A stretch of 64,000 nt of DNA, taken from a phage. Within the stretch, counting starts at the first letter, position 1. Each line of letters opens with the position of its first letter. Positions 495-37,884 of the stretch are shown piece after piece. The stretch is from the sequence record PQ724393.1, one strand, 5' to 3'. Under the pieces are notes generated by a model. It saw nothing but the letters and a program-made list of their open reading frames with translations. It was not told where the DNA came from and made no database searches. The translations under genes and the position numbers were made by a program.

Positions 495-508
495 GGGGCC
501 GAAGCCCC
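495..508 (-). other. Stem-loop GGGGC-UUCG-GCCCC (as read on minus-strand RNA) between nrdB and denA
   Basis: Perfect 5-bp GC stem with tetraloop seen directly; no strong U tract. Confidence 0.35.
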
Positions 509-513
509 ATTCC

Positions 514-1683
514 TTAAAAATATTTCTTGTATGACGCCATTACTTTTTCATCGACATCATTATCAATTTGTGCTACAAGGTAAGAACTGATTTCCACTTC
601 CTGAGGAGCCGCCTGTACAGCATCAGAGTTCAGGTATTCGCGAATCCAAGGATAAGGATGGCGAGTAGGAGCATCAGTAATAGGACACGGTAAGCCACAT
701 TGCTTCATACGAGAAACTGTCAGGTAATCGACAAAAGCACCCATGTTCTGAGTATTTAATCCAGGGCAAGTACCATCTTTGAACAGGTGAGCAGCCCATT
801 CTTTTTCTTGACGGTTAACTTCCATGAAAATATCAACTGCTTCTTGTTCACACTCTTGAGCAATTTTAACCCATTCATCACCATCTGTACCAAGCTGGAG
901 TTGACGGATAATGTACTGGGTGCCTTTAAGGTGAAGCTGTTCATCACGTGCAATGAACTTCATAATCTTAGCATTACCTTCCATGATTTCCATGTTTTTA
1001 TGGAAGTTAAAGGTGCATGCGAAAGATACATAAAAACGAATAGCTTCCAATGCGTTGATTACATGCAGGCAGAGGTAAAGAGAGCGCATTAGTTCGTATT
1101 TAGCGGTTTTAAGACCTTCACTGAACTCATGGTATTCTTCTAAAGCATTTTGGTATTTACGTGTTTTTTCAATAACGTCATCGTAATAACGACCAATAGA
1201 TTCGGCACGTTTCATGATAGCGTCGTCCAACAGAATTTCATCAAATACCTTAGATGGGTCTGTATAGAGGTTACGCATGATATGGGTATATGAACGAGAG
1301 TGAATGGTTTCACTAAATGTCCATGTTGCCACCCAAGTATCAAGGCTAGGGTCGGAAATCAAGGCTTGAAGTGCAGCAGAAGGAGCACGACCTTGAATAC
1401 TATCCAGAAGTGATTGATACTTCAGATTATTGGTAAAAATATTTTGCTGGAATTGTGGAAGCTTATTAAACTGGGCAGCATCCATCATCAAGTTGACTTC
1501 TTCTGGACGCCAGAAAAAACTCAACTGCTTCTCACAAAGCTCTTCGAATACTTTATGGCGTTGGATATCATATCGAGCAATACCCAATCCTGAACCAAAG
1601 AACATCGGTTCGACTAAAACATCAACTGGGGTAGTATTAAAAACTGTAGACATGTTATTCTCATTTGTTAGTGACTCATCCAT
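514..1683 (-). CDS. nrdB: Ribonucleotide reductase beta subunit, uninterrupted (no intron)
   Basis: 389 aa ORF with class I RNR small-subunit features; adjacent to nrdA. Confidence 0.9.
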   Translation of the reverse strand: MDESLTNENNMSTVFNTTPVDVLVEPMFFGSGLGIARYDIQRHKVFEELCEKQLSFFWRPEEVNLMMDAAQFNKLPQFQQNIFTNNLKYQSLLDSIQGRAPSAALQALISDPSLDTWVATWTFSETIHSRSYTHIMRNLYTDPSKVFDEILLDDAIMKRAESIGRYYDDVIEKTRKYQNALEEYHEFSEGLKTAKYELMRSLYLCLHVINALEAIRFYVSFACTFNFHKNMEIMEGNAKIMKFIARDEQLHLKGTQYIIRQLQLGTDGDEWVKIAQECEQEAVDIFMEVNRQEKEWAAHLFKDGTCPGLNTQNMGAFVDYLTVSRMKQCGLPCPITDAPTRHPYPWIREYLNSDAVQAAPQEVEISSYLVAQIDNDVDEKVMASYKKYF

Positions 1684-1705: not shown

Positions 1706-3961
1706 TTAAAGCTTACAAGCTGCACAATCGTCGGCTTTAGGAGTTTCGATTTCGTAATCGTCTGTACCAGAGCCATCACGGGTATTGTGGTAGTAAAAAT
1801 TCTTGAGCCCATAATACCATCCGTACAGCAGGTCATCAAGCATTACGGACATCGGAACTTTTCCTTTCTCATAGTTCTGAGGGTCGTAATACGTATTCGC
1901 TGACGCCGATTGGCAAACCCATTTCAACATAATTGCTACTTGGGTAAGATAAGGTTTATTACCTTTCTTAGCGAGGCTCCAAGCGTAATCATAGAGGCCT
2001 TGGTTATGTTCTACATTAGGAACTACCTGACGGAAGTTACCTTCTTTAGATTCTTTAATACTTACCGGCCCACGCGGAGGTTCGATACCGTTGGTAGAGT
2101 TGGAAACTTGGCTGCTTGACTCGCATGGCATAAGTGCTGATAATGTGCTATTACGGATGCCATGTTTAGCCAGGTCTTCCCGCAACGACGACCAGTCACA
2201 AACATAGTTTGGGGCTGCGATTTGGTCAATCTTTTTATTGTACCAGTCGATAGGAAGCTCGCCTCGAGACCACTTAGTGTCTGAATAATACTCGCAAGGT
2301 CCTTTTTCTTCGGCCAACTTGATTGATGCTCGGATAAGTCCATATTGTAATCTCTCAAACAGTTCATGAGTTAAATCGTTTGCGTCTTCATAAGAAGCAA
2401 AGTTGCTTGCCAACCATGCAGCGTAGTTGGTAACACCTACACCCAAGTTACGACGTTTCTTAGCCTTCAAAGCTTCAGGAACAGGATAGCTTTGATAATC
2501 TAATAGGTTATCAAGTGCACGTACCTGTACTTCAGCGAGTTCGTTGATTTTGTCTTGGTCTTGCCAATCAAAGTTATCCAACACGAATGCAGACAGCGTA
2601 CACAATCCGATTTCAGCGTCCGGACTATTCACATCGGTAGTCGGGATAGCAATTTCACAACACAGGTTACTCTGGCGAATAGGAGCCTTTTCACGAATAA
2701 ATGGGGTGAAGTTGTTAGTGTTATCAACAAACTGAGGATAAATTCGTGCAGTGCCTGAACGTTCGGTCATAAACAATTCGAAGAGGTCGCGTGCTTTAAT
2801 ACGTTTCTTACGAATACTAGAGTCTTTTTCAGCCGCTTCATACAATTCACGGAAACGTTCTTGGTCTTCAAAATAAGAATAATAAAGCTCACCACCCATT
2901 TCATGAGGACTGAACAGCGTGATGTAATCATTTTTACCGAAACGTTCCATCATAAGGTCGTTCAACTGGATTCCGTAGTCCATATGGCGAATACGGTTCT
3001 CGTCGACACCTTTGTTGTTTTTCAGAACGAGCAGATTTTCAACTTCCAAATGCCAAATAGGATAATAAGCAGTAGCAGCGCCGCCACGGATTCCACCTTG
3101 TGAACATGATTTAACAGCAGTCTGGAAATGTTTCCAGAATGGAATAACGCCTGTATGTTTGACTTCACCCATGCCAATACGAGAACCTTCAGCACGAATC
3201 ATACCAACGTTGATACCAATACCTGCACGTTTAGAAATGTATTCAATTATTGAGTTAGCAGTTTTGTTAATAGATTTCAGTGAGTCGCCTGCTTCAATAA
3301 CCACACAAGAACTAAATTGACGGGTTGGTGTACGTGCCCCAGCCATAATAGGAGTTGGTAATGAAACCTGACGGGTACTTACAGCATCATAAAAACGAAT
3401 AATATGGGCTAAACGGTTCCCTGGCTCGTCTTGGTGTAAGGCCATGCCAATACACATGATAGCGAACTGAGGGGTTTCATAGATTTTACCGGTTGTTTTA
3501 TCTTTAACCAGATATTTCTCTTTAAGCTGCATTGCGCCAGCGTAAGTCAATTCAAAGTCACGTTCATGCTTGATATGAGATTCTAAGAAAGTAATTTCTT
3601 CTGCAGAATATCGAGACAGCAATTCTGGGTCATATTTACCTTCGTTAACACAATAGGAAATATGGTCAATAAAACTACGCGGTTCAAACTGGCCATAAAC
3701 TTCTTTACGCAGGGCAAACATCAATTGCTTTGCAGCAACATACTGATAATCAGGCTCTTCAACCGAGATAAGGTTGGCCGCGACCTTAACAGTCAAATTC
3801 TGGATATCTTTGGTAGTCATACCATCACGAAGGTGGGATTTGATTTCTTCGTATAATTCGTAGGGATCGATTTGGGTTCCTTCACAACCCCAAGTCAGAA
3901 CTTTAATAATTTTTTGTGCGTCAAAATCTTGGGATACACCACTACTCTTTTGTACTTGCAT
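1706..3961 (-). CDS. nrdA: Ribonucleotide reductase alpha subunit
   Basis: 751 aa ORF, class Ia RNR large subunit with C-terminal CxxC tail; synteny with nrdB/td. Confidence 0.9.
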   Translation of the reverse strand: MQVQKSSGVSQDFDAQKIIKVLTWGCEGTQIDPYELYEEIKSHLRDGMTTKDIQNLTVKVAANLISVEEPDYQYVAAKQLMFALRKEVYGQFEPRSFIDHISYCVNEGKYDPELLSRYSAEEITFLESHIKHERDFELTYAGAMQLKEKYLVKDKTTGKIYETPQFAIMCIGMALHQDEPGNRLAHIIRFYDAVSTRQVSLPTPIMAGARTPTRQFSSCVVIEAGDSLKSINKTANSIIEYISKRAGIGINVGMIRAEGSRIGMGEVKHTGVIPFWKHFQTAVKSCSQGGIRGGAATAYYPIWHLEVENLLVLKNNKGVDENRIRHMDYGIQLNDLMMERFGKNDYITLFSPHEMGGELYYSYFEDQERFRELYEAAEKDSSIRKKRIKARDLFELFMTERSGTARIYPQFVDNTNNFTPFIREKAPIRQSNLCCEIAIPTTDVNSPDAEIGLCTLSAFVLDNFDWQDQDKINELAEVQVRALDNLLDYQSYPVPEALKAKKRRNLGVGVTNYAAWLASNFASYEDANDLTHELFERLQYGLIRASIKLAEEKGPCEYYSDTKWSRGELPIDWYNKKIDQIAAPNYVCDWSSLREDLAKHGIRNSTLSALMPCESSSQVSNSTNGIEPPRGPVSIKESKEGNFRQVVPNVEHNQGLYDYAWSLAKKGNKPYLTQVAIMLKWVCQSASANTYYDPQNYEKGKVPMSVMLDDLLYGWYYGLKNFYYHNTRDGSGTDDYEIETPKADDCAACKL

Positions 3962-24962: not shown

Positions 24963-25066
24963 TACTTTTTAAAGTGGGCTGCTATTAAACCTATAGCTAA
25001 GCCTGTCGCCAGGCCTAGGATAACAGCAAAGATACAGAGTAACAAGAACTCGACTCCAAGGCTCAT
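24962..25066 (-). CDS. Small hydrophobic membrane peptide, 34 aa
   Basis: Hand-translated ORF with ATGA overlap to gene 52 stop. Confidence 0.3.
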   Translation of the reverse strand: MSLGVEFLLLCIFAVILGLATGLAIGLIAAHFKK

Positions 25067-26442
25067 AGAGCCTCCAAATCTTTAACATACTCGGTTACAA
25101 CATCAGTGGTTTTCCAATATTGATGCTCTTCTTTCTTAGCCTTGGCTTCTAAGGCCAATTTCTTAGCTTCATCTGATGTGATATGGAAAATGTTCATGGC
25201 TACTAGTTTATCAGCATACTCGCCGTAGACTTTATTACTAGCCAATTCTTCGGTTAAAACCTTACGAGTCTTACCTTGGATAACCACTACGCCATCAATA
25301 ACATCTTTGATAAATGTGGCTTTAGCCAATGCCAGTTTGAAAGCTTCTTCAGTTTCGATGATTTTACCATCAATACGTTTCTGTACAAAGGTCTTACGGA
25401 CCTCAACGAAATCACGAATCAGTTCAACTGCATCTTCGTAAACCTTAAGTTTACCTTTCTCATTAATGACAGTCAGGTTTTGTGAACGGCGTTCGATTAA
25501 CCCGAAGTCCTTCATGATTTTTTCATGCTTCTTGTTTTCTTCGGTAGGCAATTCATATTCTTTACGAATCTTAACCTTGAAGCCGAAACCGTTCTCGTCA
25601 CAGTCATCGTCATACGTGATATACCCTTTGTCTTCTAAAGGGTCTAATACCTTGGCCACGTACGTTTCACGATCATATTTGTATGGGATTTCCGTGATAT
25701 GCATTTGGGTTCGAGATGTGAACTTATAGGTCCCACGAATCTCATAACTACCTGGTTCAGTCTCAACAACATCACCACGGAATTCAGGATAAGCCACTTT
25801 AGGCTTGGTTACACGTTTTTCCTGAAGAACTTGTAATACAGCTTTCTTAACAGAATCAAAACTATGAGGAAGAATATTAGTTGCATAACCAGTTGCAATA
25901 CCGGAAACGCCATTAAGAAGAACAGTAGGAATAATAGGCAGATAAAAAGCCGGTGGCTTATGTTCGACATCCGCATGAACCGGAGCATATTCTGTGTCCT
26001 TATAAACTTTTGCAAAGTTACTTCCAATACGAGCAAAAATATAACGAGAGGCCGCCGCCTTTTGAACCAAACGAGAACCAAAGTTACCCTGGCCATCCAA
26101 CAGTGGGAAGTTGTTGTTCCATGTGTTAGCCATCAAAGCCCCTGCTTCCTGAGCAGAACCTTCACCATGATGATATCCAAGGTCGGCTACGCCACCAGCG
26201 ATAGAAGCCAGTTTGTGGAATTTTTCTTTATTACCACGAGCCATATCAAGACAACGAGCAACTACAAAACGTTGTACAGGTTTAAAGCCGTCAATCATAT
26301 TTGGAATGGCACGGTTTTCGACAGTATACATTGCATAAGCCAATGCTTCGTTGTCGATAATACTTTTTAAGTCGCGAGGAGTAAAAGTATCGTCGTAAAC
26401 ATCTAAAGCCTGTTTAAAAAGGGTATCAATTACATCAGCCAT
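25063..26442 (-). CDS. 52: DNA topoisomerase II medium subunit gp52 (GyrA-like)
   Basis: 459 aa; GyrA N-terminal motifs (GFKPVQRFVV, active-site Tyr region). Confidence 0.85.
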   Translation of the reverse strand: MADVIDTLFKQALDVYDDTFTPRDLKSIIDNEALAYAMYTVENRAIPNMIDGFKPVQRFVVARCLDMARGNKEKFHKLASIAGGVADLGYHHGEGSAQEAGALMANTWNNNFPLLDGQGNFGSRLVQKAAASRYIFARIGSNFAKVYKDTEYAPVHADVEHKPPAFYLPIIPTVLLNGVSGIATGYATNILPHSFDSVKKAVLQVLQEKRVTKPKVAYPEFRGDVVETEPGSYEIRGTYKFTSRTQMHITEIPYKYDRETYVAKVLDPLEDKGYITYDDDCDENGFGFKVKIRKEYELPTEENKKHEKIMKDFGLIERRSQNLTVINEKGKLKVYEDAVELIRDFVEVRKTFVQKRIDGKIIETEEAFKLALAKATFIKDVIDGVVVIQGKTRKVLTEELASNKVYGEYADKLVAMNIFHITSDEAKKLALEAKAKKEEHQYWKTTDVVTEYVKDLEAL

Positions 26443-32818: not shown

Positions 32819-33022
32819 TCAATTCAGGTTACGTTTAAAAAGGTCTGCTACTTCAAGGAGCTCGTCCTTAGTAGCGATGTCGTTGAGTATTTTATATCTG
32901 ATTTCTTTAAAGCGTTCTTTAAAATCCTCAGCTGCATTGATATCAAAAAATCGTTGGATTAACCGGAATTCTTTATGGACGGCTTTATCGAACAAATCAA
33001 TATTCACTTTAAAGTTTGTCAT
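32819..33022 (-). CDS. Hypothetical protein
   Basis: 67 aa ORF. Confidence 0.4.
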   Translation of the reverse strand: MTNFKVNIDLFDKAVHKEFRLIQRFFDINAAEDFKERFKEIRYKILNDIATKDELLEVADLFKRNLN

Positions 33023-33359
33023 TTTTAACTACCTCATGTTGAACATATTCTCTGGTAGAACCGAGTTCAGCCAGAATTCTTCTCATAGAACCCATTGTAC
33101 TTTTGTGCTCTCTGTGGCGATACAATATCTCCAGAACCTTTTCCTGGACAACAGGAGAGAGCGCCTGGTTATCTTTAATCTTTAAGGCAATAGATTTTAC
33201 AGCCTTAAGATATTCTAGCCCCTTACCGCTTGTAATCACTACTCCTTCATCTTTACAGTTACGAATAGCGGTTTCCATAAAGGATAAAGCCAGGTTGTCA
33301 GTGTTCACTATACTGTTATCTTGCATAATCATATTCTCACCTCTAGATAATCCTATCAC
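33009..33359 (-). CDS. Hypothetical protein
   Basis: 116 aa ORF. Confidence 0.4.
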   Translation of the reverse strand: MIGLSRGENMIMQDNSIVNTDNLALSFMETAIRNCKDEGVVITSGKGLEYLKAVKSIALKIKDNQALSPVVQEKVLEILYRHREHKSTMGSMRRILAELGSTREYVQHEVVKNDKL

Positions 33360-33383
33360 AGTTTTGTTATGTTGTAAACCCCG

Positions 33384-33401
33384 AAAAGGGCCTTGCGGCC
33401 C
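33384..33401 (-). terminator. Intrinsic terminator GGGCC-GCAA-GGCCC + U4
   Basis: GC stem, tetraloop and U run on the minus-strand transcript. Confidence 0.5.
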
Positions 33402-33405
33402 TTAA

Positions 33406-33558
33406 TTATTCAATTTTGTAGACTTGTCCTCGAACTTGATAAAATTCGCCTTCCCAGGTTTCTACCATAATGGTCACATACTCTGCGAACAAAGGTCTCT
33501 TCTCGGCCCAGAGATATCCAAATTCACCGGTGGCTAGCGTTATCCAGTACTTTCTCAT
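33406..33558 (-). CDS. Hypothetical small protein, 50 aa (track ORF trimmed)
   Basis: SD AGGAG before internal ATG just downstream of gene 39 stop. Confidence 0.35.
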   Translation of the reverse strand: MRKYWITLATGEFGYLWAEKRPLFAEYVTIMVETWEGEFYQVRGQVYKIE

Positions 33559-33601
33559 AAAGTCTCCTAATTGTATGGCACTCATGTACCATACATATTT
33601 A

Positions 33602-35419
33602 TTACGACATCCAGGCCTTACGGAGTTGAGGGTCGTTCCCGAGGAGCATTTCGAACTGTTCTTTCCAATCTTCAGGCAATTGAACCACATCAAATTTAGG
33701 GTCTTGAATCATTCGACGGTATTCAGCCTTCTCAAGAGAACCTAAACCTTTAATATATCGAATAGAATGTTTTGGTAGAGAGTCCTTGGCTTTGGTATAA
33801 CTAGGAACATCATAAAACCATTCCTGTTCTTTACCAATCTGAGCAATAATCACCGGAGTTTTACAGAATCGTACTCGGCCTTGTTCGAATAATTCAGGCC
33901 ATTGGCTAAAGAAGGCTAGCAATGACGGATAAATCGAGCCTGTACCATCCACATCGGCATCAGTCATAATAGCGATATTACGATAGTTAGTTTTATCTGC
34001 AGGTTCGCCAATAACCAGTCCAGTGATTGCACAGATATCAAACAATTCTTTGTTCTTCATGATATCAACTGCAGGCATACCCCAGGTATTCATAACCTTA
34101 CCACGCAATGGATAACCGCCTTGAAGGTCTTTATTACGTACTTCAATGAAAGGACCCATTGCTGAATCACCTTCAGTCAAGAACAGAGTTGTATCGGCAT
34201 CTTTACCATACATATTGGCTTTAATATGCTTATGGACCTTAGCTTTCAAAGCTTTCTTAGCGGCTTTTGTTTCTGCTGCTTTTTCGGCTGCTAATTTACG
34301 TGCTAAAGCAGCTTCGACGATAGGCATAATCAACCCATCGACCTTAAGAATCATCGATGCAATTTTCTTAGCATCAATTTGGATATGGCTACGAATCTCG
34401 CCAAACGGGGAGGTCAAACGCTCTTTAGTCTGGGAATCAAAACGCATATTACTCATATCACGAATGAACATTACCATCGTAAGGCATTCTTTAACACGAG
34501 CCTTAGTTACTTCAATTCCACGATATTTCTTTTTAATACCAGGCAGAAGGTGCTCACAAATGTCATCGAATACACATTCAACGTGGTGGCCACCATTCTT
34601 GGTATGGATATTATTTACATACGTCAGTTGACGGAACCCATCCGGAGAAGGAGTAAATGCCATCGAAACATTATCAGTTTCTTGGATTACAAAGTCATCA
34701 CCAAATTGCTTAGCATACTTTTTAAAGTTGCCATCTACTTTTTTACCATTAAAAGTAAATTGAATATCAGGATAAATTACGGCCAGTGTTTGAAGACGGT
34801 CTAATGTAATATCCAGATAAATTTGGGTCAGGCTATTTTCTTCGAAATGGTTAAAGTCTGGGGTGAATATAACCGAAGTACCCTTACCTTTAGATTTCTT
34901 AGTAGTCCAACCTTTGTTTTCCATTCCGTTAGAACAGTTAACAGTAATCTCATTCTCGCCATCAGAGGTGATGCCTGTGAACAAAACAGAGAAGATATTA
35001 GTTAAACTACTACCGACACCATTCATGCCACCTGTCTTACGCTCTGAGTCATCTCCAAAGTTACCACCGGCCTTTGGAATAGTCCATGCAGCTACAGGAC
35101 CCGGAATTTGTTCGCCATTTTGGTCAGTAACCATTGCTTGTGGAATACCACGGCCATTATCGGAAACTGAAACCTGATTATTCTTAATTCGGACATCAAT
35201 TTTGTTTGCGAATTTAAAATTAGTACGAATAGCTTCATCGACAGAGTTATCAATGATTTCGTCAATTAATTTAACCAGTCCAGGAACATAGTTCACCTGG
35301 GTAAAATTACCAAACAGGAATCGACCGTGAGCTTCATTAGCACTTGAGCCAATATACATCCCACTACGTTTTTTGATATGTTCAATGTCGGACAGTACTT
35401 TAATTTCATTCTTAATCAT
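33602..35419 (-). CDS. 39: DNA topoisomerase II large subunit gp39, full-length GyrB-like
   Basis: 605 aa single ORF with ATPase and TOPRIM motifs; not split as T4 39 + 60. Confidence 0.85.
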   Translation of the reverse strand: MIKNEIKVLSDIEHIKKRSGMYIGSSANEAHGRFLFGNFTQVNYVPGLVKLIDEIIDNSVDEAIRTNFKFANKIDVRIKNNQVSVSDNGRGIPQAMVTDQNGEQIPGPVAAWTIPKAGGNFGDDSERKTGGMNGVGSSLTNIFSVLFTGITSDGENEITVNCSNGMENKGWTTKKSKGKGTSVIFTPDFNHFEENSLTQIYLDITLDRLQTLAVIYPDIQFTFNGKKVDGNFKKYAKQFGDDFVIQETDNVSMAFTPSPDGFRQLTYVNNIHTKNGGHHVECVFDDICEHLLPGIKKKYRGIEVTKARVKECLTMVMFIRDMSNMRFDSQTKERLTSPFGEIRSHIQIDAKKIASMILKVDGLIMPIVEAALARKLAAEKAAETKAAKKALKAKVHKHIKANMYGKDADTTLFLTEGDSAMGPFIEVRNKDLQGGYPLRGKVMNTWGMPAVDIMKNKELFDICAITGLVIGEPADKTNYRNIAIMTDADVDGTGSIYPSLLAFFSQWPELFEQGRVRFCKTPVIIAQIGKEQEWFYDVPSYTKAKDSLPKHSIRYIKGLGSLEKAEYRRMIQDPKFDVVQLPEDWKEQFEMLLGNDPQLRKAWMS

Positions 35420-35470
35420 GTTATTTCCTCATGTAGTAGGAGAATATTATCCCATTTCACTTAAAGCATA

Positions 35471-35485
35471 AAAGGGCCGAAGCCC
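35471..35485 (-). terminator. Hairpin GGGC-UUCG-GCCC + U-rich tail
   Basis: Short GC stem with tetraloop followed by UUUAUGCUUU. Confidence 0.4.
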
Positions 35486-35746
35486 TTAATCAAATCGAAT
35501 GGTCGACTTTTTAAAGAATAACCCAGAACAAACTGTTCCTTCAACCCTTTTACCTGTCGGCCCTACAGCAATAAAGCCTGTACGCTGGAAATCATCTTCA
35601 GAACAGCCGAATAAGTTGTATCCTGTGATTTGGATTTGTTCGTAGCCATTTGCATCCAATACACGGGTAGCATTATCGGCATCAGTACAACCAACCAACG
35701 AAACTGCTAGTACAAGAGCCGCAATAGAACGATTAACATATTTCAT
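35486..35746 (-). CDS. Putative lipoprotein, 86 aa
   Basis: Signal peptide with lipobox LVGC at residues 17-20. Confidence 0.5.
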   Translation of the reverse strand: MKYVNRSIAALVLAVSLVGCTDADNATRVLDANGYEQIQITGYNLFGCSEDDFQRTGFIAVGPTGKRVEGTVCSGLFFKKSTIRFD

Positions 35747-36692: not shown

Positions 36693-37259
36693 TTATGCAC
36701 GGTGAATGTTAGCATATTCAACAATAAAGCTTTCAGGAACAACCTTAAAGGTTCCAAGGAACACGATGTTATAGAGCTTAACGCCACCTTCAACCCACTG
36801 GTCTGTGATGTAACCAGACATGCTACTGGTTTCGTAAGTACCAAAAGGTTCGTCAACATATTTGAACGGTTTAGGAGTATTAAAACACACTCCTCGACCT
36901 AATTTCCATTTGAAATCAACGCCTACATGAGATTGGTCAATAGTTTCAACGTCTTGAGCTACTACGCCACGGATATCATTGCTTTCACATACATACCCAT
37001 CATGAGATTCAACTTCTTCAACTACAGGAGCGATGTATCCGGTAAATTCAGTCGATTCCAGGAATTTAGCGCGCACATAGCCGAATTGGGTTTCAGTCTG
37101 GCGATTTTTAGGAATGATACGAACTTTTACTTCATAATTTTCTTCACTGACACCTTCTTTAAGTTGGATGCTAACAACTTCAACTAAACTGCCCGCAGCT
37201 TTTGAACGAGACTTTTTGGATACACGAACGATACTGCCGATATCGGAAATAGTAATCAT
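36693..37259 (-). CDS. Hypothetical protein, paralog A of tandem pair
   Basis: 188 aa; C-terminal GYITDQWVEGGVKLYNIVFLGTFKVVP shared with the adjacent gene. Confidence 0.5.
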   Translation of the reverse strand: MITISDIGSIVRVSKKSRSKAAGSLVEVVSIQLKEGVSEENYEVKVRIIPKNRQTETQFGYVRAKFLESTEFTGYIAPVVEEVESHDGYVCESNDIRGVVAQDVETIDQSHVGVDFKWKLGRGVCFNTPKPFKYVDEPFGTYETSSMSGYITDQWVEGGVKLYNIVFLGTFKVVPESFIVEYANIHRA

Positions 37260-37332: not shown

Positions 37333-37884
37333 TTAATTCAATACGTTAACCACTGCACTACGAGGTACTACACTAAAATCACCAGCATGGACAACGTTCA
37401 GGAGTTCAACACCATCTTCAATCCACTGGTCTGTTACCCAACCGCAGATAGGGTTATCAAAAGGACGACGGATAGCCACAGCAGCACACAGAAGGTCGGT
37501 AGGGTCTTGTTCGACTTCGACTTCACGGAAAAGCCCAAATTCAGCTTCATAGACTAGGATTTTCTCTACTTTGTTATTATCTAACCGGCGGCCATGTATT
37601 ACGTAAGATTTAGTAAACCAGTCACTTTTGGCGAATTCTTCAACAATAAATTCGCCTTCGCCAAAAACATCAGTCAGAGTTTTATAACCGGAAATCAAGG
37701 CCTTAGTTTTAATTTCAGGTTCAACCAGTTTGTAGGTTTTGCCGATTTCGATAGTCTGAGTAGTCATAGCGGTTTCCTTAATTTCCAGTGGTTTAACAGG
37801 GCATACATAAGTGCTTAAAACATCAAAATCAATCAGTTTAGCTGCCGGATTCGGGGTGTATTTAGGGTTGTAATTAAATTTCAT
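37333..37884 (-). CDS. Hypothetical protein, paralog B of tandem pair
   Basis: 183 aa; C-terminal GWVTDQWIEDGVELLNVVHAGDFSVVP. Confidence 0.5.
   Translation of the reverse strand: MKFNYNPKYTPNPAAKLIDFDVLSTYVCPVKPLEIKETAMTTQTIEIGKTYKLVEPEIKTKALISGYKTLTDVFGEGEFIVEEFAKSDWFTKSYVIHGRRLDNNKVEKILVYEAEFGLFREVEVEQDPTDLLCAAVAIRRPFDNPICGWVTDQWIEDGVELLNVVHAGDFSVVPRSAVVNVLN

Follow-up and report, generated by a model that had tools for sequence, protein, structure and literature searches.

The segment from position 33602 to 35419 on the minus strand of the 64,000-nucleotide phage sequence analysed here (record PQ724393.1; hereafter, the window) is, with near certainty, an unsplit gene 39 from a T4-related coliphage of the JS98-like genus Dhakavirus, specifying as a single polypeptide the topoisomerase large subunit which phage T4 divides between genes 39 and 60; none of the observations speaks against this identification. 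The unsplit condition is the published ancestral state of this gene and, as such, is already known. An earlier sequence-only reading of the same DNA had implicitly treated T4 as the reference state; that framing is reversed, as the intact gene is both ancestral and overwhelmingly common, and T4 is the exception. The features referred to below are as follows.

33602..35419, minus strand: gene 39, intact GyrB/ParE-like large subunit of a phage type IIA topoisomerase (605 aa plus stop)
34277..35419, minus strand: predicted ATPase region at the N terminus, comprising GHKL fold and transducer, approximately residues 1-381, from Pfam boundaries, motifs and the match to 9imj_A
33602..34174, minus strand: predicted Toprim domain and C-terminal region, from motifs, T4 gp39/gp60 alignments and a weak TOPRIM_C match
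33986..34000, minus strand: equivalent of the T4 split point, codons ~474-478 (A-D-K-T-N), from BLASTP ends, a four-way protein alignment and codon coordinates
33941..33946, minus strand: equivalent of the T4 gene 60 bypass, where G492 (GGT) adjoins T493 (ACA), from the codon listing set against the T4 exon ends
35420..35487, minus strand: putative upstream control region (hairpin, MotA-box-like element, -10-like element, Shine-Dalgarno sequence), from a terminator scan and sequence comparison
33406..33558, minus strand: 50-aa ORF, phrog_4369, with GGAG 5 nt before its ATG
33009..33332 or 33359, minus strand: 107- or 116-aa ORF, Pfam DUF7367, phrog_5382
25063..26442, minus strand: gene 52, GyrA/ParC-like DNA breakage-reunion subunit and gp39 partner, from Pfam and solved-chain matches

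The ORF listing places gene 39 in a single open frame of 605 codons, running from an ATG at 35419 to a TAA at 33604..33602, such that the continuous 605-aa ORF of the sequence-only reading is borne out at its exact coordinates. An open stretch of this length would be expected by chance approximately 2e-13 times across both strands of the whole window, given a window GC content of 39.7% and a stop probability of 0.065 per random codon. The GC content by codon position (50/35/34%) follows a protein-coding pattern, and a Shine-Dalgarno sequence, GAGGA, is positioned 6 nt 5' of the ATG. Two antisense ORFs are contained within gene 39, at 34146..34631 (plus strand; 161 aa) and 34379..34804 (plus strand; 141 aa), neither of which has family support; both most likely mirror the coding strand as shadow ORFs.

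The GyrB-like nature proposed for the product is upheld by family assignments which together span its full length. PHROG 543, "DNA topoisomerase II large subunit," covers residues 1-605 (E 9e-280), while Pfam reports HATPase_c (E 6e-11; 43.1 bits against a cut-off of 26.4) and DNA_gyraseB (PF00204; E 1e-13; 51.2 bits against a cut-off of 27). The N-terminal region harbors the N-box of a GHKL ATPase (EIIDNSVDE, residues 54-62, with E54 and N58), a D-x-G-x-G motif starting at D87 (DNGRGIP, residues 87-93) and an ATP lid (GGMNGVG, residues 130-136), followed by the QTK loop of the transducer at residues 330-332. The catalytic glutamate of a Toprim domain (EGDSA, residues 416-420) and its DxDxD metal-binding motif (DADVDG, residues 487-492) are present on the same polypeptide, with PLRGK at residues 437-441. 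The functional roles of these GHKL, QTK and Toprim motifs are as established for GyrB and topoisomerase II. The Pfam scan returned no match to the Toprim model itself and placed TOPRIM_C (residues 521-583) at 21.1 bits, below its gathering threshold of 29 bits; the predicted Toprim domain is therefore assigned from its motifs and from alignments with solved homologs.

Such alignments are extensive. In a PDB search, the solved ATPase-domain chain 9imj_A matches residues 1-381, the T6 gp39 chain 8ylu_C (611 residues deposited) aligns over its residues 1-604 with residues 1-605 of the query, and 8yo3_C, an engineered fusion of T4 gp39 and gp60, is likewise a full-length match. The 8ylu and 8yo3 entries are T-even topoisomerase structures from a study which used T6 gp39 (PMC11461880). 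The same architecture of GHKL ATPase, transducer and Toprim domain recurs in the GyrB/ParE proteins of bacteria and in eukaryotic topoisomerase II (N-terminal half), with PDB matches that include human TOP2A (E 2e-57), the ParE of Streptococcus pneumoniae (E 1e-42) and the GyrB of E. coli (E 5e-40); in sequence, these proteins are distant.

The relationship of the ORF to the divided T4 protein was assessed using T4 genes 39 and 60 from NC_000866, with gene 60 joined over its annotated 50-nt bypass before alignment. Both T4 proteins match, colinearly and in frame: by BLASTP, residues 1-474 correspond to T4 gp39 residues 1-473 (363/474 identical; 77%), and residues 474-605 correspond to T4 gp60 residues 28-159 (98/132 identical; 74%; E 2e-73). 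The C-terminal part of the ORF, which had to be related to gp60 for the sequence-only reading to hold, is therefore so related, given this level of identity. In tblastn, the gp39 and gp60 matches abut at 33998/34000, in one frame and without a gap, and represent the sole such matches in the window. It is at 33986..34000 that T4 gp39 leaves the alignment and enters a 43-aa tail derived from inserted DNA, and that gp60 homology starts; neither residues 474-516 of T4 gp39 nor residues 1-27 of gp60 have a counterpart in the gene 39 product according to BLASTP and the four-way alignment. In T4, the Toprim domain is shared between gp39 and gp60, whereas here its motifs reside on one polypeptide. These positions are taken from where the local BLASTP and tblastn matches end; a global DNA alignment by MAFFT with the T4 39-mobA-60 region was set aside, because it put a 1-kb T4-only block in the wrong place, near the 3' end of the gene.

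The flanking genes of T4 are the same as those of the present phage, while the DNA which separates gene 39 from gene 60 in T4 is not recognizable here. The T4 insert of approximately 1 kb (2910..3909) carries the 43-aa gp39 tail, a mobA pseudogene, 60.1 and the N-terminal extension of gp60. When compared with the window, this insert yielded chance-level matches only (best E 0.05 by blastn and 0.22 by tblastx), none of which was located within gene 39 in a matching context, and neither program found a mobA HNH homing endonuclease gene, or a remnant of one, between the gp39- and gp60-like halves. T4 additionally has a 50-nt coding gap at 2803..2852, for which there is no equivalent in the window. 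At this site, T4 reads GAT CAC GAT GGA, then the 50-nt gap, which begins with TAG, and then TTA GGT TCT; in the present gene, codons 487-495 continue unbroken as GAT GCC GAT GTG GAT GGT ACA GGC TCG, with G492 at 33946..33944, thus specifying D V D G T G S (including D491, G492, T493, G494 and S495) across the bypass site. The take-off codon GGA, which in the T4-type bypass is accompanied by an adjacent stop codon, a hairpin and a landing GGA, is that of T4, while gene 39 here has the glycine codon GGT with no stop codon after it. A search of the 64-kb window for the T4 bypass sequence, allowing up to three mismatches, gave no match. The statement that this phage has no gene 60 bypass consequently stands for the 64 kb, and we infer that the bypass is probably absent genome-wide from the complete and nearly identical genome of Escherichia phage fDHCT2, in which there is a single gp39/gp60-like place.

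Assignment to the genus Dhakavirus (JS98-like Straboviridae) is based on a megablast search with 3 kb around gene 39, in which fDHCT2 was the nearest record (98.6% nucleotide and 99.3% amino acid identity), and phages dhaeg, CLB_P2, IME08, JS98 and JS10 displayed 92 to 95% identity. In JS98, dhaeg, IME08 and other records, this ORF carries the annotation gene 39, DNA topoisomerase II large subunit. JS98 gp39 (YP_001595132.1) is also of 605 aa, of which 590 are identical (98%), and the gene is at the same locus in JS98 (39.2, 39.1, 39, ..., rIIA.1, rIIA); its gene 39 differs from that of the window by approximately 7% at the nucleotide level, mostly through synonymous changes. The unsplit gp39 of T2, again 605 aa in length, shares 77% identity with one single-residue gap. 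T2 and T6 gp39 have the same domain order, a gp52 partner and a full-length alignment with the present protein, although these phages belong to the genus Tequatrovirus rather than Dhakavirus.

The unsplit gene is the rule. A tblastn search of 50,697 phage records with the gene 39 protein identified 1,912 with a homolog, in 1,830 of which a single place accounts for at least 80% of the query; among 60 records sampled at even spacing, only one, that of Acinetobacter phage AB-Navy-v2, was split around a homing endonuclease. This holds even within the genus of T4 itself: when the T4 bypass region was applied as a megablast query, only 42 of the 282 records contained the bypass, while the others matched just its 34-nt flank. 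These outputs are in line with previous reports: the enzymes of T2 and T6 are composed of two subunits, that of T4 being the only known three-subunit enzyme (PMC11461880), while intact Topo2L is regarded as the parental form, with the division of the gene, its terminal extensions and the bypass being attributed to a mobile MobA element of approximately 1.1 kb which had, at that time, been found in only 28 genomic sequences (10.1101/2022.08.31.505936). One candidate for an interrupted gene was rejected: a two-piece match and approximately 189 additional bp had raised this suspicion for Escherichia phage 04086, the gene 39 of which is, nevertheless, intact at 1,818 nt, the extra DNA being located upstream. 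In that phage (OR842557.1), the locus at ~501..1069, corresponding to the 39.2/39.1 region, is approximately 189 bp longer than its equivalent in the window.

The MobA homing-endonuclease cassette, which in T4 divided the gene into 39 and 60 and brought in the 50-nt bypass, almost certainly never inserted into this gene, the continuity of which thus represents the ancestral condition. It is conceivable that a MobA-type element once interrupted the gene, the parts of which became re-fused following loss of the endonuclease and the bypass, in which case its continuity would be derived, and secondary fusion after MobA loss has indeed been reported in some clades of Aeromonas and Campylobacter phages (10.1101/2022.08.31.505936). 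We consider this highly improbable in the present case, since re-fused genes are reported to retain C- and N-terminal extensions derived from the insert (10.1101/2022.08.31.505936), none of which is found here, since neither blastn nor tblastx yields a significant match to the T4 insert in the window, and since the protein is equal in length to T2 gp39, with no extra residues across the junction.

A GyrA-like partner is encoded in the same window, 7 kb from gene 39. The gene 52 ORF matches DNA_topoisoIV (PF00521; E 9e-75; 252.6 bits), and its product matches the gp52 chains of T4 and T6, 8yo3_A and 8ylu_A, with E values of approximately 1e-239. By the first-start rule this ORF specifies 459 aa; because homology to the solved T4/T6 gp52 proteins (442 to 452 residues deposited) begins at residue 22, the true gp52 start may be an internal codon some 17 to 20 residues downstream.

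The gene 39 product is predicted to act as the ATPase and Toprim subunit in a type IIA topoisomerase which the phage encodes for itself. By analogy with its homologs, two copies would assemble with two of gp52 into a heterotetramer resembling the T2 and T6 enzymes, in which ATP binding would close the N-terminal GHKL gate, E416 and D487/D489/D491 of the Toprim domain would hold the metal ions, the gp52 tyrosine would cleave the DNA, and a second duplex would pass through the resulting break. T-even topoisomerase is known to relax DNA and not to supercoil it, and the presumed role here would be the relaxation of supercoils and the support of phage DNA replication. Gene 39 would be translated conventionally from its one reading frame, with a timing of expression presumed to follow that of its homologs.

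Gene 39 is clearly under purifying selection. The ratio of synonymous to non-synonymous changes among differing codons is 100:15 in comparison with JS98, 79:14 with dhaeg and 132:26 with phage 04086, and 107 of the 127 nucleotide differences (84%) between JS98 and the window are located at third codon positions. The notion that gene 39 is an intact but decaying or non-functional copy, with the phage relying on host gyrase or topoisomerase IV, can draw on the fact that the gene is not strictly essential, T4 topoisomerase mutants being viable with delayed DNA synthesis, but is the least credible reading of all, as every catalytic motif is present, synonymous changes are in marked excess against each of the three relatives, the layout of the upstream signals is conserved, the partner gene 52 is retained and a full-length gene occurs in 1,830 of the 1,912 homolog-bearing phage records. 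For the T4 and T6 homologs, ATP-dependent strand-passage activity has been shown (PMC11461880).

With respect to MobA homing, a stretch of approximately 63 nt at the MobA nick and insertion site (codons ~478-498) shares, by hand count, approximately 76% DNA identity with T2, while the surrounding protein is conserved. Such divergence of the target DNA could conceivably render Dhakavirus phages poor substrates for MobA homing, a suggestion which we regard as rather unlikely but which, if true, would help to explain the uninterrupted gene 39 in the Dhakavirus genomes inspected (those of JS98, dhaeg and 04086, in which the gene was read directly, and of fDHCT2, represented by a full-length protein match in one piece). 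Alternatively, gene 39 of Dhakavirus may be a naive homing site which can still be invaded. As a parental, uninvaded form of the MobA/bypass target, the present gene is one more of those which serve as comparators for dating and mapping MobA insertions, with the qualification that hundreds of such comparator genes are already in databases. Homing endonuclease genes (HNH or GIY-YIG) are also annotated under or beside the large-subunit match in Klebsiella phages Biddle_MM4 and KMI12 and in the aforementioned Acinetobacter phage AB-Navy-v2, which fits the topoisomerase large-subunit gene being a recurrent homing target.

With regard to annotation, the proper label for the present gene is "DNA topoisomerase II large subunit (gp39, unsplit)," and no recoding model is needed in order to translate this genome. 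In older GenBank records, EF469154 (JS98) and EU863409 (JS10), the full-length 605-aa gene is labelled "gp39 topoisomerase II large subunit N-terminal region"; the wording is inherited from T4 and is inaccurate, because the JS98/JS10 protein includes the gp60-equivalent C terminus.

Upstream of gene 39, the terminator scan identified a terminator-like hairpin, AAGGGCTTCGGCCCTT, at 35487..35472, which is followed by the MotA-box-like sequence TTATGCTTTA, 12 nt, the -10-like sequence GATAAT and the GAGGA ribosome-binding signal described above. The succession of hairpin, promoter-like element and Shine-Dalgarno sequence is common to T4, T2 and JS98 upstream of gene 39. On inspection against the published MotA-box consensus, TTATGCTTTA and GATAAT together represent a candidate T4-type middle promoter. 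A sigma-70 promoter scan returned sites at a level not above that of shuffled sequence, and none in the gap between 39.1 and 39.

Downstream, the region at 33009..33558 (minus strand), between gene 39 and rIIA.1, accommodates two small conserved genes over approximately 580 bp, as opposed to a gap of approximately 55 bp in T4 and T2; T2 is without these two genes. Both are annotated in phage dhaeg, whereas the RefSeq record of JS98 leaves the stretch unannotated. The ORF list contains, at 33406..33693 (minus strand), a TTG-started ORF of 95 aa which extends over the final 92 nt of gene 39. This overlap probably reflects no more than the assignment of the earliest possible start to the ORF; the conserved 50-aa product starts at the ATG at 33558, as in the dhaeg annotation and in full-length phrog_4369.

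On the other side of gene 39, two adjacent ORFs, 36693..37259 and 37333..37884 (both minus strand), match Pfam motB, one strongly (E 1e-60) and the other weakly and at the C terminus only (E 2e-8; named motB.1 in JS98), which suggests an old tandem duplication of a MotB-like gene.
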